Shown here: positions 1,490-59,352 of the stretch, piece after piece | Position numbering within the stretch: the first letter of the stretch is position 1 | How the letters are laid out: each line of letters opens with the position of its first letter | NCBI GenBank assembly: GCA_013239625.1 | Contig: MU053758.1 | Location: 2,170,001-2,234,000, forward strand | From: Lama guanicoe | Lineage: Eukaryota | Reading direction: 5' to 3' | Length of the DNA: 64,000 bases | Notes under the pieces: generated by a model | Databases searched by the model: none | What the model saw: the letters and a program-made list of their open reading frames with translations, nothing else | What the model was told of the DNA's origin: nothing | Position numbers and translations under genes: made by a program

Positions 1490-1827
1490 TAGGGAAAGCC
1501 ATGAAGGTGTATTGGGGGCCATGATTAGGCTGGCTGGGTGGTTCAGTGGGTTCACTGATGGGACAGAGAGAACAGCCGTGCAGAAAGGCTTGACTTGGCT
1601 CTTTAAGGTGCTTGAACTTTGCTTCTCATCCCGTAACCTTGGGGAGCACTGGAGGATTTTGAATAAGGGAAAGAACCCAATAAAATTACACTTTAAGAAT
1701 AGACACTGGTTGAGGAATGGAAAGTTGCCGCGATTAGCGGCTGACAGGTGATAGGCAGGTAACCAGTTTCAGGTGAAATCCCTTGCATGTGGATGGGACC
1801 TGGAGTCATCCTACTTTTCCATCTCAG

Positions 1828-1980
1828 GTTCACTGCATCAGCACTGAGTTCACTCCTCGGAAAAAAGGTGGAGAGAAAGGTGTCCCCTTCCGCCTCCAGA
1901 TCGACACTTTCAAGCCCAGTGACAAGGAACTTCCGCCCGAGCACCTGCATTCGGCTGGCTGCCTCATCAAGGTGTTTAAG
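1828..1980 (+). CDS. CP2-like exon (153 nt): [54 protein letters not shown]-binding domain
   Basis: Acceptor ttttccatctcag, donor gtacag; length and sequence match the 51-aa TFCP2 exon 6 as recalled. Confidence 0.93.
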
Positions 1981-4900
1981 GTACAGGCCGTACGAGAGGC
2001 CCATTTCGCTCCCTCTCAGGGCTCTCACCCTGCCTTGCTGGCTGTGTGGATCTTGCTCTGCTTTGCTATGGACCCTCAGCGTGCGGTCCCGTCTCTGGGA
2101 CTATTTCCTTCTCTGTACACAGAGGGATGGATCTCTTTCCTAGAGCCCCCTCCTGTAACGTAAAGAGGGGGCTTCTAAGGTTTCCTTGTCACTCTCCTGC
2201 AGCCTAAAGGAGCTGACCGGAAACTGAAAACTGACCGGGAGAAGATTGAGAAACAGCCCTTGCATGAGAGAGACAAGTATCAGACTGCCTGTGAGAGCAC
2301 AGTCTTCATGGAGGTGTGTGTGTGCTGGGTGACAGGGTGGGTGACGGGGTGGGAGGCGGTGCACAGACGGGAAGGTCTGGAGAAGAGACCCTCATAGTAC
2401 AAATGGGTAAACTGGTCCTCAGGAGCTGTGACTACCCTAGGATCATCACAGGCCCCCACTCCCACCCCAACCCCGTGATTCCACCTGTTTCCTGCAAGCA
2501 CAAATTGCATAGTCTGTTGCTCAAGACTTCCAGGAGCTGACTCTTTCCAGGCCACCTCACTTCTGCTCCCTCTGCCTGGAGCATCTCCCTTCCTGCTGTA
2601 GCTCCTCCAGGAAGCCTTTCCCACTCCCCTTGTAGACCTGCTGGCTAGTTCACTTTCTTCTTTGTGTGGAAATTCGGTCTAATTGTCAGGGACCAAGTTT
2701 GGCCCAAGGAGGCCCCTTGTCAGCTCCTAATAGATGGAGGAAGGTGAACCAAGAGCCACCACTGCCCCCAGAATGTCTAGGCTAACCTTGCTGTTTGTTT
2801 GCCCACAGTGTACACCATGGCCAGAGCCCAGTTTGGGGCCCCACCCGCCTCTGAGCCCTCTTGCTTTGACCTCCCCACACTCCTGCAAGCTCCTGTCCCC
2901 GGAAAGGTAAGGCAGGATCTCACCCCTTTGGGGTGAGAGTGAAGAGGAGAGCTCCTCAGCCCAGGCACTGAGGGAGGGGCAGTTCTGAGGGTGGAGCTGA
3001 GGCAGCTCCTGGGGTATCTGTGGGTGACAACGGGGAAGGGCTGGGGGCAGGAGGCTGGCTGCACTGCTCCACTGAGCCTGACTCTTCTGTTCCCCACAGG
3101 CTCTGCTCCTCACCACCATTCACCGTGGACACCTCGAGGGGCAGCCCAGCTCGGGTGAGTCTGCAACCCCTAACGAAGTGTTCCAGCCTTCTCAGCAGTT
3201 TCATCTCTTTCCAGAATAGAGTGGCCCTGCCCCCTGGTGGACAGACGTGGCATGGCCACAGAGCACAAAATGGCACTTCCCAGGGCAGGATGGGCCTCCC
3301 TATCACTTGGGACCCCCAAGGGTAGGGGCTGTTTCCCTTCTGCCTTGTTCTTAGTCCGTGGGTCTACAGTGTTCCTTGAACTGCTCTCTTTGTGCCTCAG
3401 GATCTGAACCCTGGAGCTTCCATCCTAGAGACGCAGCAATGGTTGCATCTGCACCGGTTCTCCAACTATTGCCGGATGCTGGCCAATTTCACTGGTGAGG
3501 CTGGGGTCTGGTAGGGACTGTAGGGGACTGAGGGCAGGACATTTAGGCAGGAAGCCTGTCTCTGTCCTGGTTTGTTGTGTGCCCTTCAACTTTTATTTAG
3601 AACTGTGAGTTGGCAAGCACTACGCTTGCTAGGTTTTCAGAGAGGTTAAATAACTTGCCCAAGGACACAGAGCTGGCAAGTGGCAGTGGTGGGATTTGAG
3701 TCCAAGTCTGACTCCGATGTTTGGCCATACTAGGGCTATTTGTAGATGTTGTACTGTATCCCTTGCCGCCCTTTACCCCAGACCTCTTCATTTAATCTGG
3801 CCCTGTCTCACTCTGCAGGCACTGATCTGCTGAAGCTTACCCGCCAGGACCTTATCCAGATCTGTGGGGCTGCTGATGGGATCCGCCTTTTCAACACTCT
3901 TAGAGCCAGGTGCTGGGCACTGCCAACCAGGGTCCCCTTCCTACTGCAGTGGCACTTACCAACTCAGCTGGCAGTTGTGTATCACTCAGTTTCTAGGAAT
4001 GGAGATCGAATTTTCTTATCTTCTCTCCTCCCAGGGTCCAGCGTTCATTAAATGCCTCAGAAAATGCTGGGTGGCCTCTCCCCCTAGAAACCTGGGAGAA
4101 GGCAGGGTCTCTCCCTGAGGGACGGGAGCTAAAACTGGGACCCGTCAGTTCAAGTATGAATGTAGACTATTTTCCTGGCCCAGGCCCATCCGTCACCGGC
4201 TGACCTTGTATGTTGCTCGGGAGGTCTCTAGGCAAGAGAACGAGGTTCCTAAGAACCCTGACTCAGGTGAGGTTCTGGCCTCTCCAGAAGACAAGAAACT
4301 CAGGTGGGGCTGCATGAAACCTCTTCCAGCCTGGGGAAGGGCGATGCTCCACCATTCCTGGGACCCAGGATGCTCTTGGCATTCCCATCTACCATGAGTA
4401 TATTAGTCCTCTCCTTCCAGGATGTCTCCCTGGGCTTACTTTTCCATGTTCCACACTCCCACCCCATCTGATTTTGTCATTAGTTTTAGTACATGGGATG
4501 AAAATACTATTATCCTGCCATTGAACTTGGGTTTCAATCATTCATATGGTGTCCCATCTCCTTGTTAAACTGGGGGTTCCCCTCAGCCTGAGGCCTCCCC
4601 AAATGTGAGGAATAGGAGTTGAAAATGAAGTGGATTTATAAGCCTTTCTCTTTCTTTACTCCTTCTCTCCACACCCCCATCCTCCCCATGAGGCTGCCAT
4701 CTTGCCCTCTCCTTCTGGTTCTGGTTCAGAGGGATCTGAACCCCACCAACCACTGACCCCTGCCCCTGTGCCGCCCACATCCCCAGGCTTTTATCAAGAG
4801 ATCTCTCTGGATGAACTCAGTGCTGTAGAACTCATGGGAAAATTGGCTGAGTTCCTGGCCCTCCCAGCCAATCAGATCCACCGTCTCTTCCACCAGGGCC

Positions 4901-5743
4901 CTGGGGGCATCCTCATTCTCCTCAGTGATCAGGTAAAAGGCCCCACAAAGGCCTGGATCACTCTTCCACCTCAGGCCCAGTCTCCTCCTCCCTGCCCTAG
5001 CTTATTCTGTTTGGCTCAAAGAACAGAATTGTCTTAGTAACGCTTTATCCCTTGCAGGTCATTCAGAATCTTAAGGATGAATCATACTTTGTGGCTGTGG
5101 TGAAGAAAGGTAGGGGTTTTAGAGGGAGAGGTGTGTCCGGCAAGCCCTAGAAAGGATAAGATTGTTTATATTGGCTCCTAAATGAGATTGAAAGATTCCA
5201 TGAAGGTGTGTGTGTGTGGATGCTTTGTCCCAATCAAGGGGTAAGTATCTTCTGAATGCTAGCTTTGTGTCAGAGGGGATAGATTCATAAAAGACAGCTA
5301 TTTACTGCTTAGGGAAAATGCAACTGAGTAAATGCATTCTCATGAGGGAAAAATACCCTAGTTTCTACATCAGGGAGTTTTATTAGCAGGAGAGGTAAGG
5401 ACTCTGCTCTCCCCTCCCCACTATTGTAAGGGCAGGTGCTTGTTAGACACCACCTGGAGCAGAGCACTTCTGATCAGTTGGCTTGTGGCCTGGTTATTCA
5501 GATGCCTGCCCTCTGTCCCTCCCCTTTGCTGCGGTACCCAGGGAGGCTTCCTAAAGAGCTAGATTCACGGTGGGGCAGAAGACCACTTGGATGTGGCAGA
5601 TGCACTACAAGCTGTTTGGAGGTTTGGGAGCAGCATAGTCATGGTCGTTGGGTTCCCACATCATCCCAATGGTGCCCCCCACTTTTTTTTTTTAACTGCT
5701 TTCAGTGCAGAATCCAGATGGGTACTACCTGGTTCTGACCTAG
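1828..5743 (+). CDS. Divergent CP2/LSF (TFCP2/UBP1/TFCP2L1)-family transcription factor, 3' part: 10 exons, 921 nt = 306 aa + TAG; 5' exons lie upstream of the window
   Basis: join(1828-1980,2203-2313,2809-2906,3100-3154,3401-3494,3819-3909,4184-4266,4787-4932,5058-5109,5706-5743). All introns are GT-AG, phases are consistent and there is no internal stop. Motifs [60 protein letters not shown] are diagnostic of the LSF subfamily. Confidence 0.93.
2203..2313 (+). CDS. CP2-like exon (111 nt): [37 protein letters not shown]
   Basis: Acceptor ctctcctgcag, donor gtgtgt; PKGADRK recognition-helix motif. Confidence 0.92.
2809..2906 (+). CDS. CP2-like exon (98 nt): [32 protein letters not shown](R), Pro/Ser linker
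   Basis: Acceptor tttgcccacag, donor gtaagg; starts with C(S/T)PWP as in LSF proteins. Confidence 0.88.
3100..3154 (+). CDS. CP2-like exon (55 nt): (R)[18 protein letters not shown]
   Basis: Acceptor ttccccacag, donor gtgagt; needed to restore the frame between the phase-2 and phase-0 neighbours. Confidence 0.82.
3227..3240 (-). promoter_or_regulatory. CTCF motif (CCACCAGGGGGCAG)
   Basis: Full match to the CCASYAGRKGGCRS core on the minus strand. Confidence 0.55.
3401..3494 (+). CDS. CP2-like exon (94 nt): [31 protein letters not shown](G), SAM-like domain N-half
   Basis: Acceptor tttgtgcctcag, donor gtgagg; QQWLH..RFS....NF motif. Confidence 0.92.
3819..3909 (+). CDS. CP2-like exon (91 nt): (G)[29 protein letters not shown](R), SAM-like domain C-half
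   Basis: Acceptor ctctgcag, donor gtgctg; conserved DLLKLT/ICG/DGIRLFN. Confidence 0.92.
4184..4266 (+). CDS. CP2-like exon (83 nt): (R)[27 protein letters not shown](G)
   Basis: Acceptor tttcctggcccag, donor gtgagg; RLT.YV motif. Confidence 0.88.
4787..4932 (+). CDS. CP2-like exon (146 nt): (G)[48 protein letters not shown]
   Basis: Acceptor catccccag, donor gtaaaa; resembles the LSF C-terminal Y..I.L.EL...EL..K.A ... QGP.GI..L.SD pattern. Confidence 0.9.
5058..5109 (+). CDS. CP2-like exon (52 nt): [17 protein letters not shown]
   Basis: Acceptor tcccttgcag, donor gtaggg; matches the penultimate LSF exon (IQN...E..F). Confidence 0.88.
5706..5743 (+). CDS. CP2-like terminal coding exon: [12 protein letters not shown]
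   Basis: T-rich tract then ctgctttcag acceptor; 12-aa tail aligns with the LSF ...ND.YHIILK* ending; TAG at 5741-5743. Confidence 0.85.
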
Positions 5744-6108
5744 GCCCAGGGATGCCCCACTGCAAGAGAAGACTGGTGCCAGCCTGGTTCTCTGGGGTCC
5801 TTGCTCACTAGAAGCCCTGTTCAAATCTTCGGCTGCTTCACCAGGCTCCAGGTGAAGTGCCAGATCGTGTATCCTACCCCTGGGAGGAGACAAGCAGCCC
5901 CTAGGCTCACATTTCTTTCTGCTCAGAAGCAACAGTTGTTGGAACCCTGGGGACACAAGGGTCTCACCTCCCAAACTGAGCTGAGCTGGCCAAGCCTGTG
6001 AGGCAAAAAACCCAGTAATGTGGATAAGGGGCTTTTGCCCCAAGCTCTGCTGCTGAAGCAGAATGTGTTAATTCATGTTTATTTAAAATTTTATTCACCC
6101 ACTTTTAA

Positions 6109-14662: not shown

Positions 14663-14770
14663 TCATAGGATGATGCAGCATCTGCAGAAGCGCTGTCTGC
14701 TGCCCCCTACTGATGGGGGTGGAGTGACAGGTGCGAAGTAGGCGTGGACTTTAATATTGGGTAAATGGGT
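14663..14770 (-). CDS. FBXL20: FBXL20 exon 15 coding part: [35 protein letters not shown] (CaaX)
   Basis: Acceptor ttgtttcag; TGA at 14665-14663. Confidence 0.96.
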   Translation of the reverse strand, partial: THLPNIKVHAYFAPVTPPPSVGGSRQRFCRCCIIL

Positions 14771-17700
14771 CTGAAACAAGACAAAAACATTACTAAGAGA
14801 TAGGGCTTAAACAGAATGAGCAACGTTGCTTTTCAGAAAAACCACTGAGGACTGAGTGGACATGAAGGCAGGGCAGACGCTAAGCACAGTCGGGATGTTG
14901 AGAGGCCTGGGTTCTACTTTGTACCATCCCAGGTTATTCTAAAAGACAAACTCAGTTCATGTAACTTTGGTACCTGCTTCCCTAATAATAAAAATTGGGG
15001 AAAAACTTCATGCTAATCTCTTAACCTGTCCCAAAGGGATTCCTAGTTGGATTCTCATAGTTGGAAGAAATTATATAAGCTTAAAATAGTAATTTTTTTC
15101 AAGCCACTGTGGCAATATTTCTTCTGACATTTTAAGAAACCTCATTAAATCCTCTTTTAACAACATGCTTCTAGATTTTACTACATAGTTCCTAAATTCC
15201 TACTATGTTCAAGACACTGTGCTAGTTATGCAAAAGGAGGTACAAGGATGGTCAAGATGGAGATCCTACTCTTAGGGAACTTACAGTCTAGACATGCACA
15301 CAAATAGCTAATAGAGTGGAAAAGTGCTAAGTGACTCTTGAGGATTCAGAGATGCAAGAGACTCCTGACAGCCAGGAAGGTCCAGGAACCCTAGTGTAAG
15401 CAGGCCACAGGCCATAGAACAGGCTCCAGTTGACCCATGGCTCTCCTTGTTTGGTGTAGAAGAAATATGGGTGCAAGGCCTCCCTCCCTTATGTTCTCAG
15501 TCCTCTCGGTCTGAAGTGAGAGGTAGAACTCAAGATGAAGTATGGTGTTCCTTCATGCACTCACATGCCATAAGGCCAACATGGATATTCTTAGAGGTTG
15601 GTTGTAAGGGCCAAACTAAGCACAGTAAATTTCCCACAGCAGGTGTGAAGCAGATGTTCCAAAAAATGTCTGTTGAGCTGAATAATCCGACACAGATTTA
15701 TCCAGCCTTTTATAATCTCCTTGCTGATAACCTGTCTTTCAGTTTTTTGGCTATAGGTGGGTCTCTTTATTATGAAGGATAGGGCAGAAAGAAAAGGTAA
15801 AAAACTACCTGATTCATTTGTTGCCTTAAAAAAAATAAGAACCCTAGCAAAAGAATCCGATATGAAAGGAAATACAAATTAAATTGTTAAATCTCATTTA
15901 ACTAAATATTTTCTTCATGTTATTCCTTTCTTTCCTTTAAAAACAAAATCTGGCATGTGCTTTTTTGATTCTAGGCATGTTATTAGAGAGACTGTTGGAA
16001 GGAGACCTACTTTTCTTCCCTTCAGTGTGTGTTTTCCTACTAAATTTCCATCTGGAAAAACAGGTAAAAACTATCTTCCCTTAGGCTTGCTCTCCATCTT
16101 TTTTTCTTTGCTGAATGTCCAGGTAAATTAAGTATCACAGAAAACTAAATTTAAAAAGAGGAAATGGAGGATAAAAGAAAAGAGAAAAGAAAAGAAAAGA
16201 AGGAAGGGGTGCTGAGAATTTAGAGCCAGAGGGTGATTCCACCGTCTTTACCCTGAGTCTCTTGATTCCAGCCCGTGTGATTTGCTGGCAGTCATAGAGT
16301 TCTATCCGCTCAAGGCTGTGACAGCTCTTCAAGTGCTCCAGGGATGCATCCGTGATTAGCGGGCAGTTGTCCAGTTCAATCACCTCCAGCTGGTCATGGG
16401 CGCAGGCCCCGTTCCCCAGGTGACGAATTCCATCGTCTGTGATCAGCTCACAGTGAGACAGACTCTGCAGCCAAATAGAGCAAGGAAGGACACTAAGCGC
16501 TAGATCCATGTGGTGAAATGAAGAAAGCAAACTAGAGTTGCTGGGGTTCTGCTTCTGACAATCAATGATAGACATTTCTGTGTGGGATTCTAAATATTTT
16601 TTGTGAATTCCTGTAATGATTATGAAATAGTTCATAAACAAAATACATTATCCCGCCCTACCCTCTCCATATACAAATTATTAACACTTTTCTTCTCTAC
16701 AGGGACAAGGGGGCTCAGGCTCTTCCTGTAAAAAATTTTCTGGAATTTGGACTATATACTGAATACCTGGTGCAGGGACACGCCCAAATAGTTAATTAAC
16801 TGAAAATTATTCTTTTAGCTTTAAGATGTGGTTGTTTCTTCACTTTACCAATTTTCCTTAAATCTCTGGTTCCTCCATGTGAAACTCAGTACCACTGACC
16901 CAAACATAGTTTAATGTGCCACCAAACACCAAAAATAAGCCTAGATACAGAACAGTCAACCAGAATGCTTTCCCACAGTGTTACTGGAAACAGTAGCAGA
17001 GAACTCCCCCTACTGAGGCCTGGATTGCTTCTGTTTTATAGGAATAGTTGGTCTCAATGTGAAGCAAACTGCATTTGGGGCCACCTTTTCTCTGGAAATT
17101 TAAGCATCGTTCAGGCTGGAGTGTAATTCATGTGGGAGGGAGAACTCATACTCTCCATGTCAGTTTTCAATCTCCAAGCACTGATACAGAAAATATTTAA
17201 CTTTTCCAGTTCCCATCTCAGTTTCTCCCTTCATGCAGGTCCTCCCTTGGCCCTCTGTAAGTTGGCAAATTGGAGAACATGCTTTCCCAAAACGGTAGCC
17301 AGATACTAAGAGGAAAGTAAGAGCTGTGTTTTGATTAAATCCAATAAACATAAAACTTTCAAAGTCAAACTCACCAATACTTGAAGTCGAGGACAGTGTA
17401 TAGAAAGTTGGATTAATGTGCTATCTGTTATCTGAAAGAAACATGTAAGTTTATTTTAGGGCTAATTCCAAAAAATTCATGGACCATACCTCATTCTTGA
17501 CTACACTTGTATTCTAGATTGATACCCTGATACCAATCATCAAATAGCAGAATCTTGCTTGCAATCCCATCAGCTACCTGAACCTATTCTTTGAGAGCCT
17601 ATCCAGGCTAGTCATCATCTTTGAGCAGGACTGTTGAAAATCCTGTTTGTTTTTGAAATAAATGAAAAGGTGCCCTCTATAACTTCTACCCACTGGACAT

Positions 17701-29700: not shown

Positions 29701-32700
29701 AAAGAAAATCAAAAGATCCTATTTTGTGACATGTGAAAATTAAATGAAATTCAAATTTCACCACCATGCAATAAAGTTTTACTGGGGCACAGCCACATTC
29801 ATTTGTTTATGTATTATCTATGGCTACCTTTGTAAAACACTGGTAGGGTTGAGTAGCTGTCACAGAGACTATGTGGCCAACAAAGCCTAAAATATTTCCT
29901 TATCCAGCTTCATATAGAAAAAGTTTGCTGATTCTTGCTTTATTCTATTTATTATGAAATATTACATGAACTGACTTTCTATTCTTTTTTAAATTGAAGT
30001 ATAGTTGATTTTTTAAAAAATTTATTTATTCATTTAATGGAGGCACTGGGAGTTGAACCCAGGACCTTGTATACACTAAGCATGCATTCTACCACTGAGC
30101 TATACCCTCTCTCTGAAGTATAGTTGACTTACAGTGTTGTATTAGTTTCTGGTGTACAGTGCAGTGATTCAGTTACACATATTATTTTTCATTACAGGTT
30201 ACTCCAGGCTGCTGAATACAGCTCCCTGTTCTATAAAGCAGGACCTTGTTGTTTATCTATTCTGTACCTAGTAGTTTGTATCAGCCAATTTCAAATTACC
30301 AATTTATCCCTCCCTTCCCCTTTCTCCCACTGGTAACTGTAAGTTTATTTTCTGTTGATGAGTCTCCTGTTTTGTAAATAAGTTCCTTTGTGTCATTTTT
30401 TAAAGATTCCACATATAAGTGATATCATATGAAACCTGTCTTTCTCTCACTTACTTCACTTACTGTGATAATCTCTAGGTCCACCCATGTTGCTGCAAAT
30501 GACATTATTTCATTCCTTTTTATGGCCGAGTAGTGTTCCATTGTGTGTGTGTGTGTGCGCGCGCACGCTGTCAATGGACATTCAGGTTGATTCCATGTCT
30601 TGGCTATTGTAAAAAGTGCTGCTGTGGACACTGGGGTGCATGTGTCCTTCTGAATTTCTGAGTTTTCTCTGGATATATGCTCAGGAGTGGGATTGTGGGA
30701 TCATACAGTAACTATTTTTAGTTCTTCAAAACCTCCATACTGTTCATCATAGTGGCTGTACCAATTTACAATCTCACCAACGAACTGATTTTAGGATGCT
30801 AAACTACACTTGTATGTAATTTCTGGGATAAAACCCACTTGGTTATGATCCAAAACCTTTTTATATGTTGCTGGATTTGGTTTCCTAAGAGTTTGTTCAG
30901 TATTTTTGCACCTCTGTTCCTGACAGCAAATCAGTAGATTTCCTTTTATTGTGATGTCTCTAATTGGCTTTTGTATCAGAAAAATACCAGCCTCTTAGAA
31001 CAAGTCATGAAGTGTTTCTTCTTTTACTTTATCAATGAGTTTCAGGATTGGTATTAAATCTTCTTTAAATATATGATGGACTCACCAATGAAGCGATCTG
31101 GGCCTGGGCTTTTCTTTGTGGGACAATTTTGAATTACTCAGTGAATTTACTTGCTATACATCTATTCAGATGGTCTATTTTTTTCTTGAGTCAAATTTGG
31201 TAATTTGGGCCTTCCCAGGAATTTGCTCATTTCATCTAGGTCATCTGATTTGTCAGCATAAAGTTATTTATGATTTTCCATGATAATCATTTTATCTGTC
31301 TTTTGGCTCAAGTATTTAGTCCTCCCCTTCATTCCTGCTTTTGATAATTTGAGTCTTCTTTCTTATTTTCTTAGTCTATGTTTGTCAAGTCTTAATTTTT
31401 TCCCCAAAGAACCAGCTTTTGGTTTCATTGATTTTATTACTGTTTCTGTTGCCTATTTCATGATATCCAATTCAATCTGCACTTTTCCCCCTTCTTCTGT
31501 GTGCTCTGGACTTTGTCCTTCTTTTTCTAATTTCTTAATGTTGAAGATTGTTATTGATTTGAGCTTTCTTTCTTTCCTCTTTATTGATAGGAATGCAGAG
31601 CTATATCACTATCTTGGCTGCATCCCATAAATTCTGGTAACTTTTTATTTTCATTTAGCTCAAAATTATTTAGAAGCATTGATGCTTAACTTCCAGATAC
31701 TTGAGGTTTTTCCACATTTTGTTCTGTTGTGAATCTCTAGTTTAATTTTTACTTTTTTTAAAGTTATTTTCTTATAGTTTGCTAATGGATTACAATATGT
31801 ATCTTAACTTACCACAATGTATTTCAGAACAATAACCTGATTCTCCCAAAACATAAGCATTTTGCTACAATAGCTCATGGTTCCCTGCACTCTCCTTTAT
31901 GCTATTACTTTCAAGTGTTTAAATATATATTACTTCTATATATGATGTAGACCTAACAATATAGTGTTATGATTATTGCTTTATACAGGCTTTTATTTTC
32001 TCAAGAAGACAGGAGAGAATTAGTCTTAGATTTACCCACATATTTACTAATTTACATATTTACTAGCAATTCTGATTACTCTTCATTTATCAGTTCCTAT
32101 GTATTTGAGTTACTGTTTGGTATTTATTTTCTTTGGACCTGAAGAGCTTTCTTTAGTATTTTTTGCAAAGCACATTTACTCACAACAAATCCTCTCCATT
32201 TTTGTTTATCTGGGAAAATCATTATTTTGCTTTCATTTTTGAAGGATAGTTTTCTTTTCAGAATACTGAATACATCACATGGCTCTGGCTTCCACTGTTT
32301 CTGATTAGGTTACACGTTAATCATATATTCCTTTTTTATACATGAGTTATTTTCCTTTTGCTGCTTACAAAATCTTCTCTTTTAGTTTGGCTCTAGGTTT
32401 GGATATCTCTATCTTTAATCTTCCTGGGGTTACTGAACTTAGAGTTGTAGATTAATGTTTATCATCAAATTTGGAAGGTTTTCTACATCAATTCCTCATA
32501 TATATACACACACACACACACATATATAATAAAAAATATATATACATATATATACACATATATATTATATATATGTATGTGTGTGTGTATACATAAATTT
32601 TTTTTTTTTGCCCCTCTCTGTCTTGTCTGGGATTCCCATTTCATGTATGCTGGTACTCATAATGTTATTCCACAGATCTCTGAGGCTCTGCCCATTTTAC

Positions 32701-32818: not shown

Positions 32819-35800
32819 ATACCACACCTTCTTAACCCAGTCATCTGTCAAGTGGGCATTTAGGTTGTTTCCATGTCTTGGCTGTTGTAAATAGTGCTGC
32901 TATGAACATTGGGGTGCATGTAACTTTTCAAATTTGAGCTTCCTCCAAAGTTGGATGCCCAGGAGTGGGACTGCTGGATCATATGGTTAACTCTGTTTTT
33001 AGTTTTTTAAGGAATCTCCATTCTGTTTTCCATAATGGCTGCACCAAACTACATTCCCTCCAACAGTGTAGGAGGGTTCCCTTTTCTCCACACCCTGTCC
33101 AGCATTTATCGTTTGTGGACTTTCAAATGATGGTCATTCTGACTGTAGTGAGGCGATACCTTACTTTTGATTTGCATTTCACTGATAATTGGTGATACTG
33201 AGCATTTTTTCATGTGCCTATTGGCTATTTGTGTGTCTTTGTTGGAATTACTTGTTTAGGTCTTCTGCATTTTTTTCGATTGGGCCATTTGCTCTTTTGT
33301 TATTATGTTGTAAGAGTTGTTTCTATATTCTGGAAATTAAGCCCTTGTCAGTCGCATCATTTGCAAATATTTTCTCCCATTCTGTAGGTTCCTTTTTTTG
33401 TATCTTTAAGCTTATTGATTATCTGTTTTTCTGTTCCCACCCTACCCCCCACAGCTTTATGGACATATAACATTGTGTAAATTTAAAGTATACAGTGTGA
33501 TGATTTGATACACATATACATTGTGGAATGGTTACCACAATAAGGTTAGTTAGCACACTCTTCACCTCACATAAATACCATTTTGTTATTATTATGGTGA
33601 AAACATTTAAAATCTATCCTCAAGTATACAATACAGTACTGTTCATTACAATCATCGTGCTGTACATTTGGATCTCTGGAAATTATTTGTCTTATACAAG
33701 TTTGTATTCTCTGACCAACATCTTTCTCATTTTCTCTGTTATCTTTAACGTGCAATTTGAGACTGCTACTGAATTTTTTTAGATACTGTATTTCTATTTC
33801 CAGAATTTCCATTTGGCTCATATTTTACGACTTCTATCTCTATTGACATTCTCTATTTAAAAAGCCACTGTCATCATACTTTCCTTTTTTAAAATGGGGA
33901 TATAATTAATGTGTAACATTGTATTAGTTTCAGGTGTACAACAAACTAATTCAAATATATGTGTATATTGCAAAATGATCACAATGACCTACGTTACCAC
34001 ATATAGTTGCAATATTTTTTCTTGTGATGAAAATGTAAGATCTCCTTTCGATTAATTTTTAATAGTTTGGTTTCAGTGTACAGTAATGTGCATATTTTTA
34101 TTAAGGTTATCCTTAAGTATTTTATGTTCTTGGATGTTACCGTGGATGTTGCTATATTTAAAATTTCACATTCCAATTGTTCATTGATAGTATATGGATA
34201 CATAATTAATTTTTGCATATTGGCCATTTTTCCCAGGAACTTGCTAGAACAAGCCCTATCGTGCCATTTGTAAATTACTTTCCAATCTACATGTCTCCCT
34301 TTCTGGCTCCCCTTATTTCTTTTACAATTAAATACAATGTTAACAGTATATTTTTCATATATACAATTTATCAGGTTAAGGAAATTACCTTTTTCTAGTT
34401 TGTTTAGAGATTTTCTCATTAATGGGTGTTTAATTTTATAAAATGCCTTTTTTGGTTCTATTGAGATGATCACGTGATTTTTCTTCCTTGATCTGTTATT
34501 AAGTTGTAACTTCTAACACTGACTGATTTTGTATGTTAAAACAATCTTACATGTATGGGATAAATCCAAGTTGGCTATGATTTATTACCATTTTCATATA
34601 TTGCTGGATTCAACTTGATGATATTTCGTTAAAGATTTTTACTTGTCCATGTGGGATACTGATCTCTAGTTTCCTTTTCTTTCTTTTCTTACTTTTGAAA
34701 CCATGGTAATGATGGCATTATAAAATGAGTTAAGAAAGCTTTTCCTCCTGCTCTTTTATTTGGAAAGATTTTTACAAGACTGTTTCCTTCTAAAATGTTC
34801 AATAGGGAGTGGGTATAGCTCAGTGGTAGGGCACATGCTTAGCATGTATGAGGTCCCAGGTTCAATCCCCAGTACCTCCATGAAAAAAATAAAATACGAT
34901 AAATAAAATGTTCAATAGACTTTAATACTATCCAAGCCCGTAGCATTTTGTTTTGGTTTTTTGGATTTTTATTTTTGGTGGAAAGGTTTTTAATCATCAA
35001 ATTTCTAAAGATATACAGCAACTCAGATTTTCTATTTTTTAATAGTTTTGGTAATTTTTGCCTTTCAAGGAAATTATTCATTTCATCTTAGCTGTCAAAT
35101 TTATTGGCATACAATTGCTCATAATATTCTCTTATTATCCCTTTAATAGGTGTAGAAAATGTAGTGATATTTCTTTTTACGGTCTTGGTAGTGGCAGCTT
35201 TTGTTTTCTTTCTTGACTAATCTAGAAGTTGATCAAGCTTACTGATTTTATTTCAAAGAAACAGCTTCCAGTTTTATGGCTTTCCTCTACTCTCTCCCCA
35301 TTTTTTATTTCATTGATTTTTACCATTATCTTTATTTCCTTCCTTTTACTTACTATGGATTTACTTTCTTTTTCTAGTTTCCTAAAGTGAAAGATTTGAT
35401 TTTAAACCTTTCTTTTATAACACAAGCATTTAAAACTACACATTTTGCTCTAAGCATTGCTATTGGTGCATTCTACAAGTTTCAAATGTTGTGTTTCCAT
35501 TATGAGACAGTGAAATTTACTTTGTAATTTTCTTTGTAATTTATCCCTTGATGCGTGGTTATTCAGGTGATATTTAATATTCAAAATTTCCAGATATGTA
35601 TTATCTGATTCCTACTTTAATTCTAATTTAATTCTGTTGAGGCCATAGAACGTACTCAATATGATTTCAATCCTAAATTTACTGAAGCTTGTTTTATGGC
35701 TCATTATTTGGTGTCTCTTATTGAATATTCCAAGTGCACTTGAAAAGAACGCTTATTCTGGTACTTTCTGGTATAGTATTCTATAAATGTCAATTAGGAC

Positions 35801-38800: not shown

Positions 38801-41800
38801 GGAAATTTCAACTTACTATGAGAAAGCTTTTCCGATTAATCCATCTACTTGAATCATGCCTAAACCTATATTATTATTTATTTTGTTTATCTTGTAAGAC
38901 ATTATGTATTTGCGGAAATGGTGCTCTGCAGTTCTCGTGTCACTACATTAATGTAGACTTCTCCCCTGGTTAAACTGCAACTTCTAAAGGACATTAACTG
39001 CTGTTTCTGTGTCCTTTCTAAATGATTTCCTGTAGTACATTAAATGCAGCAGAGGCTCAGTGAACAGTGAACAAAATCTTGCTGAATGATTCTGTGGGTC
39101 ACGTTGCTTTAAACATTCACATCCATGAAGATTAGAGAATTGTCAAGAAAACATAAAAATCCAGCATAATGTCAGTGGGCAATATTTTAAAAGCACTTTA
39201 TGAAGATAATGAAAAGTTCATGTGAGGTTTTTGTTGTTGTTTTTTTTAACTTCTTACATGGATCCTCAAGCAACTAAGATCCACCAGAACTTAAAAAAAA
39301 ATCCAACTGAAAAAAAATATAAATCTCATCTTAATCCTTATAACACAGTGAGGAAGTTATTATTTCTACTCTCCTGATAAGAAAACCAAGGAGCTCAAAT
39401 TCAGGTTAAAGTTTAAGTTTCAGCTATTATCATTCTCCATTTTGGAGAAAACAGGCAATACTAAGAGATGAAATATGACGGAGAAGTGAGAAAGGAAAAA
39501 ATCTCTCCACAGTACAAACAATCCAATAAATGACTTTGGCTTTATTCTTTCTTTATTCTCCACAAAAACTATCTGTAGGCTACCCAAGAACCCAAAATGC
39601 TAATCAAGAAGAAATCATGCAAATGTGCTTCAACATGTTGCTAACTTTATTTTTCAATAAACAAATATAAAAAGACTACCTTAAAATGAGCAAACACAGG
39701 TTCACATTTCCACCACAAAAATAAAAAAGTTTTTGAGTCTCATGAACACTACATAACTTGGTATGATTTCAGTAAAATAATTCTGCTTATTCTCAAAAAC
39801 TGAAGAAGTTTTTGGGAACACAGCAGGCTCCCATGAAGTTCAGATGCACTAAAATTAATAGTTTCTCTCTCCAGGGAAAGGAGATTTATATGGTTGGGGC
39901 TAATCTGTTCCATGCTGTAATTACATTCTAACGAGAGAAATGGGGCCACACACCACATAATTATACCTCAATATCCCTCTGGAAATCAAACAGGTCAATT
40001 CGCTGCCAGTTACTGCCATCCAGCGCCAGAACATTCCAGGCCTATTTTGAAGAAAAAGAATGAGTAGAAGTTGAGACAAAGGGGAAAAGTCAGCAATATT
40101 AAAGTTCACAATTCAACCTACCAATAATGGAAATTATTCAATATGAAATTGACCAAAAAATTTCCCAGGCCACCCCATACTATTAAATCCCAAAAGCTCT
40201 GTCTTCTTTCTGATTCATACTTGAATCTCCAAGTAGATTACCTCATAAATGAGCAGGTACAGAAATTAGCAGCTACAAAAGATCTTACGTTAGGAGGCTG
40301 GGGAAAGGACAAGTTGTGATAAGTATCACGGCCAGAAACTGTTTTCTTACTGGAGTTTCTAATCTCAAAATGAGATAATTCAGTTGATGAAAAGCAAATC
40401 TGTTATTCTACCCCTCAATAAGGTGAGGGCGAAACCAAAGAAAGAAAACAGTATTCTGAATGTACTGTCTTCAGTATATATACTACATTCAATATATATT
40501 TGCTATCCATAGCATCACTTGGTTGGACCTGAAACTGTGATGTGGTGACCTGGGCTTAGAAAAGGCACCATCATTTCTGCGTATTCATGACAGAGACTTA
40601 ATGCTTTCCTCATCACCATTTTTGCTCACTCAGATAGGCTTTTCAATTGGTCATTTTGCCCTTTGACTTGATTCAGTGGTAATTTTAAAACAGAGAAAGT
40701 TTTGAGACTTCTCATTAATTTCTTTAATAAGCTAAAGGGAGGCAAGAAAGTTTCTAAACTTTTGAACTTTTCAGGACAAGGTGAAAAATGACCCAAATAA
40801 GAGTTAACTTGTTGTGGATCATTCTGTATTTTAATCAGAAAGCCTTTAAAAGTTTTCCCTATTAAATTTAAAGTGTAAACAAAAGTTTTAATACTATTGA
40901 GTTATAAACTTCTAATATCATCTCTTATTACAACAAATCAAAATGCAGATGTGATACTGCAATTCTAAAGGGAAACTGTGTATATACTTATAAGCTCCAG
41001 GGTAACTGTCACACAGTCAGCAAGAAATATGTCAGGGGTATGAGGGTAAACAAAGTTGTCATTCCAGAAATCTTAAAGATTCCTCAGGATTTCAGTGTTA
41101 ACTTTTCTTCTTGTGGCTTCATGTTTTTCCAATGGTTTCTAACATGGCTAGTCATGGAGACAAAACTTTTTGAAGACTGTGTGTTTACTAGGGCTAAATA
41201 TACCTCTGATTTGGTTTGGTATTTTTCATTTCCTTATACTACTTTCTCCAGCAAGCAGGAAACATGCTAAACTGAGACTAAAATTAGGAATGACAAGTAC
41301 CTCTCTAGAGTTTTTAAAAAAGTTTTTTGGTGGAGGGAGGTAATTAGGGTTATCTATTTATTTATTTTTTAAGTGGTAGTACTGGGGATTGAACCCAGGA
41401 TCTCATGCATGCTAAGCATGCATTCTACTGCTGAGCTATATCCTCCCCTCTTTCAGAGTCTCTTTTAAAAGCAAATTACCTAAATATTCAAGTATAGAAA
41501 ATAACAGGATAACTACCTATATACTAACTATTCAGATTTAATGAAAACTGGCTTTGTGCTTCCTTTTAAGCTAAAACATATTAAGAGGGAAGAGGAACCT
41601 GCAAATGAAAACAACCATCAAAGCTCACTCAAATCAACATTCCTGAGATGAGCCTCTGCAACTAAATAGGTTTAGACACTGGTTTTGTTTTTCAGTTCAT
41701 ATGGAGCTTCCTATGGAGACAGCAAGGAAATCCCACTCATTTGTACCAGCCATGTCTACCACTATCAGGAACAGAAATGTCATGAATAGAAATCATCAAA

Positions 41801-44800: not shown

Positions 44801-47800
44801 TATGTACTTGACTGTAGAGACAATTACCTTTAGAATGCCAAATGTAAGAACTAATGGGAAAAGCTGCCAGGGTTTTAACTACAGATATTTGGGGGGAATG
44901 GAGGGAGAGAAAGGAGGAGATTAGGGGAGGGGTAGGCTCACAGTGAGCATTCATTCTTCAAATATAGTATCATTAACCCAAATAAAAATATTCTTATACT
45001 TATAAATATGCATTTGTAAGATAAATCAAGGAGAAATGATATTGATATCTCTATATGATAGGCCAGAACAATAAACTAAATGTACTTAGCACCGTCCTGC
45101 TTTTCATCATCTTCAGGCGAGGTACCTTAGACTTAAACCCTTTACATAGTTCCTTCTAAGAATGCATATGTCTATAATCAGAATGGCTAAGATCACAGAA
45201 ATGAGAAAACTGAGCTGGAATAAAAGGTGTGCTATTGTTGAAGGATCCTGCTTGACTACTTCAGTAATCGCCCCCCACCCCTACCCCATCTCCTATCAAC
45301 AGATTGTTGGAAAAATGGCCTAGCTGTAGGGTGCCCACGTTTAAGCAAAGGAGGTCTCATCTTCCTCAGTCAACATAAGGAATCTCAGGAAGCAAAAAGA
45401 CCTTGGCCAGGTTTCTGAAACGTGGTGTGGAAGAAGACGGGGACTAATTATAAATAAATCTTACTGCTGTATAAAAAAGAAAGAGAAAACCCAAACCCTT
45501 AATACTAGATCCCTGGAAGAGAACATGGGGCTGGCTGTTAACGTAAATACTGAGAGTAGATTTTGGAATACGGTTATCCGTGGTATGTTCTGCAAAAATA
45601 ATTTATTCCAAACTTACTTTGGATTCAGTCTTATGACAAATATCCCCAACCTACCTCAGCAATACCTCTTAATGTAGTTCTTTTTATTAAATAAATTAAA
45701 AAGCATAGCATGGTCCTGAAGAGGGCTTAACAAAATGAGTAATTTCATTCACATCATGAGGATATCTACGGGCATGACTTTTGTAAAGTAATTTGATAGT
45801 GCCCATTAAAATAAAAAAACATACATACTATGTCCTGTAGAAGCAAAAGTATGAGTAAAGATAGTTATCAGAATGTTTGATTTGGTCTATTTCAGCAAGT
45901 TTCCTTAGCTCTCAATAGGGAAACATTTCCACTGTTTATCCCCATCACAGTCAAATCTGTGCCATCAGGAACCAGGCTGTGGTTCTCTCTACTCTGGGGC
46001 CATGTCAAATGGGTGAGGGCCTGGCAGGTGGGCTGCCACTCCCTTTGCCTCCCCTAAAACACCCACGCTGGAGCCCCCTCATCTTCCTTCATTGTTCCTC
46101 AATACCACCTCGTGGCCCCCGCTTCCCCTCTGGCTCAGCTCCCTCAACTCAGCCCCTCTGCCCAGCCCCCATCCCAGGCCTTCTCTGGCCCAGCCCCCTC
46201 TGACTGTCTTCCCTTCTCTTCTTCTTGTAGTTAGCAGCCATTATAAAAATTAAGTACAGCTACATGAACTGACTTAAAAAAGATGTCAATGATTATTAAA
46301 TGACAGGAACAAAACAAGTTGTATAAGTGTTCATATCATGTTTTCATTTTTGAGAAATATAAACTATGTATACATGAACGCATGCATGTAAGTGTTGTGC
46401 ACATCATATATCTAGATATAACAGGATATATGTTACTTTTGTGGGGGAAAAACAGGCTTTTTGTGGGGGGTGTTGCTGAGAGAGCAGGAATAAGGAAGCC
46501 ATTTGTTTATTCCTTTTATTTTTTTAAAAAGTGTTGGGCTCACAAGTAACATATTTTATTTGCTAAAAAAATTTTTTAAGGCACCGGATACAGATTTTTG
46601 GCCACCATGAGTTTTATAAAGCCTGCTTGAATTTAGGGTTCTTTTTTGTTTGTTTATTTTTTTTGTTGTTCTTTTTAAAATAAAAAAATTGCAGTTTAGT
46701 TGCTGTACAAGATTATGTAAGTTACAGGTATACAATATAGTGATTCACAAGTTTTAAAGGTTACACTTCATATATAATTATAAGATATTGGCTATATTCC
46801 TTGTACTGTACAATATATCCTTTGCAGCTTATTTTATACCTAATAGTTTGTACCTCTTAATCCCCTAACCCTATATTGCTTCTTCCCCCTTTCCCTCTTC
46901 CCACTGGTAACCACTAGTTTATTCTCTGTATCTGTGAGTCTGCTTCTTTTTTGTTACTGAATTTAGGGTTCTAATACTTGTCTACTATCTGGCAGAAAAT
47001 AAACTACATTTTCAAAGTTGCAAACTTCTTATTTCTCATAAGAGACCAACAGTTTGCAGGACTTGTTCACTGAAACTTTACTATCTTCAGACGCAGGTTT
47101 ACAAGGCCCCTTTTTTACATAAGACGACTTAAGGTTTAATTATGACATTATGGTTTTATTTATGATCTTGTGAGGAACTCTGCTAAAAGCAATGTATGCT
47201 ACCTGTAGCTATAATGGACTTATTTGAGCTTTGATTCTTTAGATGAGAACAAGTTATACATTAAGTTACAAGACCTCTCTATACTCTCTCATACTTGGTC
47301 ATTATGGTGAACACAAAGATGACATATTCTGTATTACTAAGTGAATCAGAGCAGGTAGACACAACCTGCTAGATCAGATAATCTTCAACCTCTTAAATCA
47401 GGGCTGTGCCTTGCTTTACCATTTCTTTTAAACTCAAATCTTGATGGAAAATGGCTCTTAAATAAACCAGATGCACACCCCTGACCATGAAGGAGAGCAA
47501 AATAGATTTCCTATGTATTTTTGAAATGATCTTGTCTCACATTAAGAAATATTAAGAGGACATATCAGAAATTTAGTCTTGTCATCCAGCTACTTACAAT
47601 TAACTACTATTTTAACCAAGATTATATTCAGCAGAAATTATGCAAACCTAATCTATTCATATCTGGTAATCCCATGAAGCACATTAAATTATTTAGTTCC
47701 TTAGATGCACAAGTTACTATTACTTTTTTTTCTTTTTGGTGGAGAGGGGCAATTAAGATTACTTATTTATTCTTAGAGGAAGTACTGGGGACTGAACCCA

Positions 47801-50800
47801 GGACCTCATGCATGCTAAGCACGTGCTCTACTACTTGAGCTATACCCTCCCCTACTACTACTTTATTATTAACAAAACTGAGTTGATTGAAAAGTTTTCT
47901 CTTCATTTCTAAATGAGATGCACCATGGGGATGTTAATGGGGTTTTCTTTGGCCTTGTCGAGCAACTGGTAATACCACCTTCTACGAACATTTTCCAGGC
48001 AAAAATCACCTTAGCTATGATCTGTGGTACAGAATTTTAAGCAATTCATTAACCATTTGGTTACATGCTGGAAATAATTACGATTTTTTTCTTGAGGAAA
48101 TAAAATTCAATGCAAAAGTAGACAGTGTTTGTTGGGGTGAAGTCATGGTTAGGCTTTTTTCATCAAAAAAGGACAAGTCTACTACCCATTCATCTGATTT
48201 GAAGTATAGGAATCAGTCATCAAACCACAACTAAGAATATTTCTATTCTAAGACTGCATAAGAAACATAATCCTTGTGCTACCCTAATCCTAGGAAAAGT
48301 CCACCTTTATAGTAATAATTATTTATAGAAAGCCATCTGAAGGACATTCATGGTTCTTGTTAAGTATGCAATATTCTATTTGTGGTGGGCACTGTGACTG
48401 ACTCTCCAACATCCATTTCATCCCAATTAACTAATCTGTCACAGTGATTGGTTCAGGTCTAAGCCAACTGAGCTAATGAGATCTGAGAAGAGGCTTTATT
48501 GGACTATCAATGCTAGCCCACCTCTCCCCTCAGAGTGAACAAAGGATGCTGTATTTGCTGGCATCCATCCTATGACCATAAGGAAAAGCAGTTTTAGGAC
48601 CATGCTGATGCTGTTCACAGCAGAATACAGAGAGAAAATTGCTGATGAAACCGTAGATCTTCTAAATCAATTAACCTTAGGATGTAGGTAGCCCAATCTA
48701 TCTTTGTACTCCCTTTTATATGAGATAACCTCCCTAACTGTGTAAGCCACATTGAGCTACAATTACTTGCAGCTGAAAGCAACCCTGGATCAACTGGACG
48801 ATCAGAAGAATGCATTCTTAGACATTATTATTTTGTTTTTAACTGTTATAAAGGGTACTACAAGATGTGACCATATAAAATCTGTGACTGATTTGGCCAT
48901 GGAACTTTATCCACCAAATTTAATTAGACTCCTATTTGAGAAATTTCTTTTAGAAACAAGTGGAAGGAAGAGCTGTTTTTATGGAATCATATGTATATTT
49001 CTTCTTTTCTGTTAAGAATATTTCATTTATGCTACCAAGAAGTTTAAAGCTAAATTTGGGACCCATCTATAGCAACCATGTAGGCTCGTAAAAGGGAGCA
49101 TCTGTTTTACTTTTTGGCTTTGGTTTTCTACTTTTCTTTACATTTCTCATGGTCCTGATTATTTATTGATATTTATTATAATTGATCCTGATCTAAGCCA
49201 CCTCAAATGCTCAAGACAAATTAATTAGTAAATAAAAATCAAACAGGTTTCAGTCATAGTTGACATACTAATTTACATATATTAGATTAAGATATTCATG
49301 AAATATTGCTAACTAATAAGACTTCAATCACTTTAATATAGAACATTTAAACCAAGAAAGAATGTGTATGAGTACAATTATCTGGACAAACTTAAACATC
49401 TGTCATGCACAGCTCTTTTCTAAAGAGTTCGCACCATATCAGCCACCAGGTGATGATGCCCTGTTGGAATCCGGATGGACATCTGACCCAAAGGCTGCCA
49501 ATCTATAGGATAATCACTAGGCTATGATGTTTTGGCCCCAAAGCTTTTCATTTCAGTGTCTGAGAGGTCCTGCTTTTCCTTCTGGTTTCCTTATTTCCCA
49601 AGGGTACTGGTAAATCAAAAAGAACTAAATATAATAGTCTTTCTTTTGTGGCTTTAACCACTATACATATGTTTATGACTTCTAAATCATACTGATAAGC
49701 TTTAGACCTGTATACATCTGCCTTTTGACATCTCTCCTTGGATATTCACAACTACCAAAACTGAACTCATTTTCATTATTTTCCTCCCATTAACCCCATT
49801 CCTCCTATTTTATTTATCTTAGTGAGTGTTTCCACCATCTACTTGGCAGGAAGCAAAAACACTGGGCATCACCTCTGACTCCTTTCCAATATGTACCCCC
49901 ATAAGCAACAAATCAAATCAACCAGCAAACATATTGCCAATCATAACTCTTAAGAACCTCTTGATCAAATCCATTTTCTGTCTAGCCTATCATTACCATG
50001 GGGCTCAGACCATCACTTCCTCCCAATAAAGGACAAAATTTTTTGTTTTAAATTGTATATAAATAAAAATTTGTTATGTAATTGTGTATTATCACAGCTA
50101 TTTTTATTATTACACTTTTTGTAAATATTATTTATTGTAAATTAAACTTATATACATAACACACACTATATATGTATATTAGAGAGAACACACATATTAC
50201 AAAATTTACTTTTTTACAGAGCGCAATCCAGTGAATTTTAATACATCCACAATGTTGTGCATTCATCGCTAATTTCAGAACATTCTCATCACCCCTAAAA
50301 GAAACCTTGTATACATTAGTAGTAACTCCTCATCGTCCCCTCACTGCAGCCCCTGACAACACCCATCTCTATGAATTTGTCTATTCTGGGCATTTCGTAT
50401 AAATGGATTAATACAGTATGTGACCTTTGTATTTGGCTTCTTTCACTTCGAGTGTTTTTAATTATACACTTACGTTGTAGCACACATCTGTACTTCATTC
50501 TTTTTATGACTGAATACTATTCCATTGTATAGATATACCACAATTTGTTCATCCATTTGTCAGCTGATGGACATTTGGGTTGTTCCCACTTCTTGATTAT
50601 TATTAATAATTCTGCTATGAACATACATGTATAACTTTTTGTGAATATATTTGAGTTTAGGAGTAGAAATGCTGAGTTATAGGAGGAAGGAGAGCATCCA
50701 TGAGGAGGGTGACCAAGCATGAGATACTGGACAAGCAGAGCGAAGGGGCAGCCTAGTGTGGATGTCACAGGTTGAGGGGGCTGGGAAGGACGTCCAAGCA

Positions 50801-59206: not shown

Positions 59207-59352
59207 ATTTATTTATTTATTTATTTTTGTTGCAGTGGGGGCGGCAATTAGGTTTATTTATTTATTTATTTTTAGAGGAGGTACTGGGGATTGAATACAG
59301 GACATCATGCATTCTAAGCAGGCGCTCTACCACTTGAGCTATACCTTTCTCC
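59207..59352 (-). mobile_element. tRNA-derived SINE (Vic-1-like)
   Basis: TSD GAGACATTT at 59198-59206 and 59353-59361. Confidence 0.88.

Follow-up and report, generated by a model that had tools for sequence, protein, structure and literature searches.

The locus and its gene

The window, the whole stretch of 64,000 nucleotides of guanaco DNA that was analysed, carries exons 6 to 15 of a gene of the LSF/CP2 family of transcription factors, whose first five exons were located using 80 kb of genome upstream of it. The gene has 15 exons, all 14 of its introns are bounded by GT and AG, and the frame is open over 477 amino acids. The predicted protein is identical to a RefSeq record from Vicugna pacos (P0198), 'transcription factor CP2-like protein 1'; as automatic models under the TFCP2L1 product name, the gene is already known. 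Its features, together with one exon of a neighbouring gene, are as follows.

Locus L004, from about 2161 to 157 bases upstream of window base 1, plus strand: exons 1-5
1828..1980, plus strand: exon 6 (153 nt, phase 0-0), encoding minor-groove loop L10 and the final beta-strand of the CP2 DNA-binding domain
1858..1878, plus strand: loop RKKGGEK (R182-K188), with K184 in place of TFCP2 His201
1963..1965, plus strand: Leu217 codon (CTC), counterpart of TFCP2 Gln234
1969..1971, plus strand: Lys219 codon, counterpart of TFCP2 Lys236, retained
2203..2313, plus strand: exon 7, 111 nt, phase 0-0; recognition helix
2254..2256, plus strand: Gln240 codon, counterpart of TFCP2 Arg257; second amniote-stem switch
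2809..2906, plus strand: exon 8, end of the DNA-binding domain extension and Pro/Ser-rich linker
3100..3154, plus strand: exon 9, linker
3401..3494, plus strand: exon 10, first half of the SAM domain
3819..3909, plus strand: exon 11, second half of the SAM domain
4184..4266, plus strand: exon 12, start of the GRHL1_C domain
4787..4932, plus strand: exon 13, GRHL1_C domain
5058..5109, plus strand: exon 14, GRHL1_C domain
5706..5743, plus strand: exon 15, coding part including the stop
16252..16461, minus strand: exon of the FBXL20-like neighbour

Profile searches identify a CP2 DNA-binding domain (Pfam PF04516, 174 bits against a cut-off of 25), a SAM domain (PF18016, SAM_3; 64 bits against a cut-off of 22.6, E 1e-17) and a GRHL1_C domain (E 6e-13, above the Pfam cut-off), so that an earlier note, made from the letters of the window, was right to regard the oligomerisation region as well preserved. 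According to the accessible text of one study, the SAM domain is the feature that separates LSF from GRH (PMC2873413). The AlphaFold model has a mean pLDDT of 55, with the blocks of the DNA-binding domain mostly at 60-85, and places Leu217 in a predicted strand spanning residues 209-221; a fold search with this model returned a CP2 structure, PDB 8y7v, as the top match (E 4e-28).

Many exons of orthologs are contiguous on Logan contigs of 1-2 kb (P0007, P0028, P0219, P0406 and P0425), which indicates spliced RNA in several species. Words from window positions 1780-5900 recur, at fractions of 0.22-0.42, in 14 RNA or guessed-RNA runs, 5 of which are on record as RNA (2 studies) and labelled 'reproductive system'; this sharing of words is a lead and not evidence. 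Upstream, some 2402 to 2258 bases ahead of the first base of the window (in L004), there are CCAAT boxes and a TATAAA element 97 bases before the ATG, in DNA with a CpG observed/expected ratio of only 0.13. Such a CpG-poor promoter with TATA and CCAAT elements, about 100-150 bases before the ATG, suggests tissue-restricted expression.

Some records of the gene lack an exon: exon 6 is skipped in a turtle (P0231), and exon 7 in a Logan contig (P0028) and a marsupial model (P0112). Skipping of either exon (both are of phase 0-0) would remove DNA-reading elements yet can keep the SAM domain, and forms of this kind would lead to a natural inhibitor more directly than the leucine discussed below. 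In a TFCP2 record (P0123) the exon 6-7 block is tandemly repeated, through either an assembly artefact or back-splicing.

The leucine and its match to TFCP2 Gln234

Exon 6 is bounded by AG and GT, and its translation is the end of the CP2 DNA-binding domain. The CTC codon at 1963-1965 encodes Leu217 of the 477-residue protein. The earlier note had assigned this leucine to the position of TFCP2 Gln234, one half of the engineered dominant-negative LSF mutation Q234L/K236E, and the numbering is upheld by alignment both to the full-length TFCP2 record P0123, whose aligned residues are Q234 and K236 and in which the exon begins at V189, and to PDB 8y7v, which aligns without gaps across the Q234 segment. 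The alignment also confirms that K236, GGEKG and PKGADRK are all retained and that RKH has become RKK, with Lys184 replacing TFCP2 His201.

A fourth LSF paralog

The guanaco genome carries three further LSF exons, on contigs C8676, C12516 and C1007, and each has Gln (CAG or CAA) at the site. The first is TFCP2, by its match to 8y7v and by residue numbering; the second is TFCP2L1, by the position of K30 in FKQE as given in the accessible text of PMC2908540; and the third is UBP1, by elimination and by its neighbouring genes. Because TFCP2, UBP1 and TFCP2L1 are thus all present at separate loci, the window gene is a fourth LSF/CP2 paralog. Its distinctness from TFCP2L1 is evident both from the separate TFCP2L1 on C12516 and from its own tetrapod clade (support 100).

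In quick trees without bootstrap the window gene and TFCP2L1 are sisters (SH-aLRT 98-99), and the gene falls inside a vertebrate LSF clade (SH-aLRT 98). The stem branch of the paralog is long, at 0.33 changes per column. UBP1 as the sister, which synteny had hinted at, was rejected by the AU test (p-AU 0.01). A fast-evolving teleost LSF clade (P0291, P0292, P0300, P0307, P0333, P0365 and P0395), with Gln234 wherever the site is covered, joins the window-gene clade at SH-aLRT 84-86, and the alternative placement with TFCP2L1 is not rejected (p-AU 0.185); these sequences may be fish orthologs of the window gene or of TFCP2L1. No shark ortholog was identified among the family representatives examined.

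The neighbourhood has a counterpart at UBP1. The window gene stands tail to tail with an FBXL20-like gene, which is on the minus strand at about 14660-42900 (final exon near 14770, further exons near 16350, 27550 and 42830), and an exon of the paralog of this F-box gene lies 20 kb from the UBP1 exon on C1007; STAC-family matches occur 19 kb upstream of the window gene and also on the UBP1 contig. The neighbours, which from sequence we take to be FBXL20/FBXL2 and STAC2/STAC, thus stand as paralogs on separate blocks, STAC2-like and FBXL20-like here, STAC-like and FBXL2-like by UBP1. A link between UBP1 and FBXL2 also appears in a title from the reference list of PMC6213935. Mirrored neighbours fit an ancient block duplication. 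Five weak tRNA matches (30-44 bits) at 30038-30109, 34809-34880, 41374-41445, 47777-47849 and 59276-59348, the first three inside the span of the F-box gene, are probably the heads of tRNA-derived SINEs.

History of the site across lineages

Of the 294 amniote records examined among the matches listed, 5 lack the site and the other 289, many of them isoforms or near-copies, all have Leu, whereas all 11 amphibian ortholog records have Gln. Two of the searches used Leu-containing queries, which biases them toward Leu; an N-terminal query, blind to the site, listed 120 matches, comprising 111 amniote records with Leu, 4 amphibian records with Gln, 4 without the exon and 1 sturgeon record of another paralog. 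A leucine present in every amniote record with the site is neither chance nor a sequencing error. Conservation among orthologs, which the earlier note had suggested checking, therefore holds throughout amniotes (289/289) and stops at amphibians (Gln in 11/11); because amniotes are uniformly Leu and amphibians keep Gln, the change from Gln to Leu is placed on the amniote stem, ahead of reptiles, birds and mammals.

Across the protein, just three positions agree between the paralogs and amphibians but have changed to another, fixed residue in amniotes: E70, L217 and Q240. E70 was dropped from the signature because TFCP2L1 has Glu there too, which leaves Gln234-to-Leu and Arg257-to-Gln as the amniote-stem signature in the sequences compared. 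As one of so few fixed switches, with E70 common to TFCP2L1, the leucine points to a residue that is kept by selection, a point against the explanation favoured below. D83E was considered as a third co-evolving site and ruled out, Glu being present in TFCP2L1 and in 72 of the 83 Gln-bearing representatives that cover it.

Two other positions in DNA-reading elements have their own history. The His201 site is Lys in 171, Asn in 73 and another residue in 3 of 247 amniote records, and Asn in 4 of 4 amphibians; placentals have in this way an extra Lys in the minor-groove loop (His201 to Asn to Lys). In the recognition helix of placentals, Leu230 (window 2224-2226) replaces TFCP2 Gln247, a replacement that apparently also occurred separately in manakins and in a teleost clade.

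Does the leucine affect DNA binding?

In the GRHL1-DNA crystal, the DNA contacts of GRHL1 are T380, Q385, K386, G387, K389, C421, R427, K428 and R430 according to the accessible text of PMC5829564. By alignment they map to T177, R182, K183, G186, K188, K222, R228, K229 and K231 of the window protein: R182, K183, G186 and K188 of the loop match GRHL1 Q385, K386, G387 and K389, and R228 (2218-2220), K229 and K231, encoded by exon 7, match R427, K428 and R430. Across 36 amniote sequences, hand-picked from about 250 with sheep left out, conservation averages 0.997 at the nine contact positions and 0.900 over the domain (p = 0.003 when compared with random positions of the DNA-binding domain and 0.007 when compared with polar ones). 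Among 252 amniote records examined, R228 is retained in 232 of 237 and K219 in 247 of 248, the single K219 exception being a mis-spliced model; Glu236, as in the double mutant, is absent. The basic contact residues could also have been kept for other reasons, such as nuclear import.

Gln234 itself corresponds to GRHL1 Q416, which is outside the DNA contacts listed in the part of the paper available (PMC5829564). The same text places Q234 and K236 close to the interface and describes the Q234L/K236E double mutant as unable to bind. Absence from the contact list is no proof of harmlessness, because K236 (K418) is likewise unlisted and the double mutant is nevertheless binding-dead. K236 may match p53 Arg273, and Q234 may match p53 Glu271; neither parallel is mentioned in the portion of Ming et al. 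that was available. No account of Q234L alone was found in the openly accessible papers searched.

The wider family is informative about what the site accepts. Of 150 representatives, 12 lack the site and 9 are amniote orthologs; the other 129 divide into 113 with Gln and 16 with Ile, Val or Leu, and Gln is the residue in TFCP2, UBP1, TFCP2L1 and GRHL1/2. With aliphatic residues in 16 of 129, the site would seem to tolerate them in other lineages; with Gln kept in 113 of 129, some effect of Leu on affinity is possible. In thirteen of the 16, position 236 is altered as well, to Gln, and each of these thirteen retains the Arg/Lys/Lys of the helix. This group of LSF proteins with Ile or Val at 234 and Gln at 236 (P0303, P0308 from the copepod Tigriopus californicus, P0315, P0317, P0319, P0321, P0324, P0329, P0353, P0378, P0379, P0380 and P0404) keeps loop L10 and the recognition helix. 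The LSF of a spider (Parasteatoda) combines Leu at 234 with Lys at 236 and an intact recognition helix, and one aliphatic representative (P0341) is apparently mis-spliced. Both full-length non-orthologs that pair an aliphatic 234 with Lys236 also lack Arg257, a hint that an aliphatic residue at 234 may be coupled to the loss of Arg257.

Oligomerisation

LSF/CP2 factors bind CNRG-N6-CNRG as oligomers. The SAM domain of the window protein has a mean conservation of 0.87. When the C-terminal halves of the window protein and TFCP2 were folded together without an alignment, the modelled pair gave an ipSAE of 0.34 against 0.00 for the best of three controls, with runs agreeing in at least 83% of contacts and a partner pLDDT of 83. 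In a calibration set without close relatives of the partner, 51 of 78 solved pairs came up to the mark, as did 2 of 108 mismatches, but only 5 of the 78 solved pairs did so with a value of 0.60 or less, as did all 4 of the mismatches that passed. Two studies report, in their accessible parts, that mouse members of the family form heteromers (PMC2908540; PMC9223585), which makes pairing with TFCP2 plausible beforehand. The hetero-oligomerisation proposed in the earlier note is thus credible from family behaviour, and the model adds weak support to it (0.34 against 0.00). Pairing with TFCP2 does not separate an activator from an inhibitor.

Distribution, losses and significance

Most other tetrapods sampled have the paralog: it is present in horse, pig, dog, cat, camelids, bats, whales, elephant, lemurs, marsupials and monotremes, and also in birds, reptiles, salamanders and caecilians; within and near the primates it is listed for lemurs, squirrel monkey, tree shrew and colugo. 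The accessible texts count three CP2 genes in human (PMC5829564) and three in mouse (PMC2908540), and no rodent, rabbit or Old World primate name is among the matches listed, in which few members are shown per cluster. By this pattern the paralog has likely been lost in rodents, rabbit and Old World primates.

Individual lineages carry changes at the contacts themselves. A sheep cluster (P0044, P0095, P0419, P0420 and P0425) has Gln for the base-reading Arg (TFCP2 R245, the equivalent of R427Q in GRHL1), two sheep models lack the start of exon 4, and one sheep record comes from a Logan contig of transcript size. The Arg is retained in goat. In GRHL1, R427Q abolishes binding. Other ruminant changes are scattered: R182W in takin, R182Q and G225R in reindeer, and T177P in deer. 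The sheep and ruminant changes are either decay or a truly binding-dead form. A further record, P0270, resembles the squirrel-monkey ortholog with exon 6 disrupted and is possibly a decaying copy.

The overlooked fourth paralog is of greater consequence than the leucine. The openly accessible papers searched contained no description of a fourth LSF gene in vertebrates. Its sister, TFCP2L1, is a naive-pluripotency and kidney factor, and since both share one RefSeq product name, expression tables for livestock and wildlife can confuse the two. Since the family works through heteromers, the output of TFCP2L1 or TFCP2 could be changed in species that have this additional partner, whether it is an activator or an inhibitor. 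Amniote Leu and amphibian Gln also form a natural pair with which to ask which half of the dominant-negative mutation kills binding.

Interpretation

The explanation we favour, with a probability of about 0.65, is that the codon belongs to an intact fourth LSF/CP2 gene, sister to TFCP2L1, whose product is likely a DNA-binding and oligomerising protein and in which Leu217 is likely a second-shell packing change, not an off-switch. The leucine would lie in the last beta-strand, with Lys236 two residues further on and the base-reading Arg eleven; a hydrogen bond would be lost there and the outer face of the strand packed differently. Affinity or stability could be adjusted by such repacking while loop L10 and helix alpha3 go on recognising DNA, and DNA binding through these two elements would be retained; most of the damage in Q234L/K236E would come from the charge reversal (K236E). 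In homo- and hetero-oligomers the protein may serve as an activator or modulator of tissue-restricted occurrence, with SUMO at K37 (YLKQE) probably damping its activity, as at TFCP2L1 K30.

The obvious rival is a natural dominant negative or weak binder, in which Leu lowers affinity and the protein dampens oligomers of TFCP2, UBP1 and TFCP2L1 through its SAM and C-terminal domains. The residue is the same as in the engineered half-mutation, it is derived and fixed in all 289 amniote records, the SAM domain is well conserved (0.87) with a weak model of TFCP2 pairing (0.34 against 0.00), and the gene is apparently dispensable or decaying in some lineages. The idea nevertheless seems unlikely to us: constraint is stronger on the contact residues than elsewhere in the domain, something that a binding-dead protein would not need, K236 is retained in 247 of 248 records, and placentals even gain a Lys in the minor-groove loop. 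As the earlier note had itself allowed, the single substitution has no known loss of binding attached to it, only the double mutant being described as dead in the accessible text (PMC5829564). Its further step, from the leucine to weakened binding or inhibition, is not supported, given the constrained contacts, a Q416 outside the contact list and aliphatic residues in other LSFs; nor is it refuted, since Gln is kept in 113 of the 129 other representatives. A more elaborate scenario, in which the coupled switch of Gln234-to-Leu and Arg257-to-Gln on the amniote stem made a weak-binding partner that damps or redirects TFCP2, UBP1 and TFCP2L1 oligomers, serving most amniotes as a tissue-restricted brake on TFCP2L1, missing in human and mouse and fully binding-dead in sheep, is speculative and rather improbable.

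It is similarly doubtful that the protein is a binder retargeted by Leu234, Gln257, the changes from His201 to Asn to Lys and Gln247-to-Leu toward another site preference or half-site spacing. These lineage-specific changes do fall within or beside the two DNA-reading elements, and the stem branch is long (0.33 changes per column); the base-reading Arg, the Gly and the helix Lys are unaltered, however, and position 201 lies in a two-residue insertion not found in GRHL1. Far less probable is a neutral change in a dead or decaying gene, or an artefact of the gene model. Sheep do have Arg245-to-Gln, with some records lacking part of exon 4, a number of gene models from ruminants and seals carry a low-quality flag, and rodent and Old World primate names are absent from the matches listed. 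The window copy, by contrast, has an intact frame and splice sites, the DNA-binding domain is 90% conserved across amniotes with the Leu invariant, and spliced transcripts occur in several species, so that for this copy the reading is largely refuted.

Comparison with known systems

With its sister TFCP2L1 (CRTR-1, LBP-9) the window gene shares an MLFWH-type first exon, the CP2-SAM-GRHL1_C layout, 71% identity over 178 residues of the DNA-binding domain and a SUMO-type xKQE motif at the matching place (LKQE in the window protein; K30 of TFCP2L1 in the accessible text of PMC2908540). TFCP2L1 has its own locus (C12516), however, and the window protein differs from it in having Leu for Gln234, Gln for Arg257 and Lys or Asn for His201, a divergent loop before the last strand and a longer branch. 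UBP1 (LBP-1a/b) has the mirror neighbourhood, with an FBXL2/20-type gene tail to tail and a STAC-family gene on the contig, and 67% identity in the DNA-binding domain, but it has an MAW-type first exon and Gln234, and the sister pairing is rejected (p-AU 0.01). TFCP2 (LSF, CP2c; PDB 8y7v) is the top sequence and fold match in the PDB and its exon boundaries in the DNA-binding domain coincide with those of the window gene, whereas overall identity is 55%, the first exon is different, TFCP2 has Gln234 and the window protein has no poly-Gln tract.

Two further forms of LSF can be compared. Like the engineered LSF Q234L/K236E, the window protein has Leu at 234 and intact oligomerisation domains; unlike it, it keeps Lys236, and so is without the charge reversal, and its mapped contacts are under purifying constraint. 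LSF-ID / LBP-1d is an exon-skipped isoform, and records of the window paralog that skip exon 6 or exon 7 (both phase 0-0) likewise exist. Those skipped isoforms delete DNA-reading elements, whereas the full-length Leu protein keeps them.
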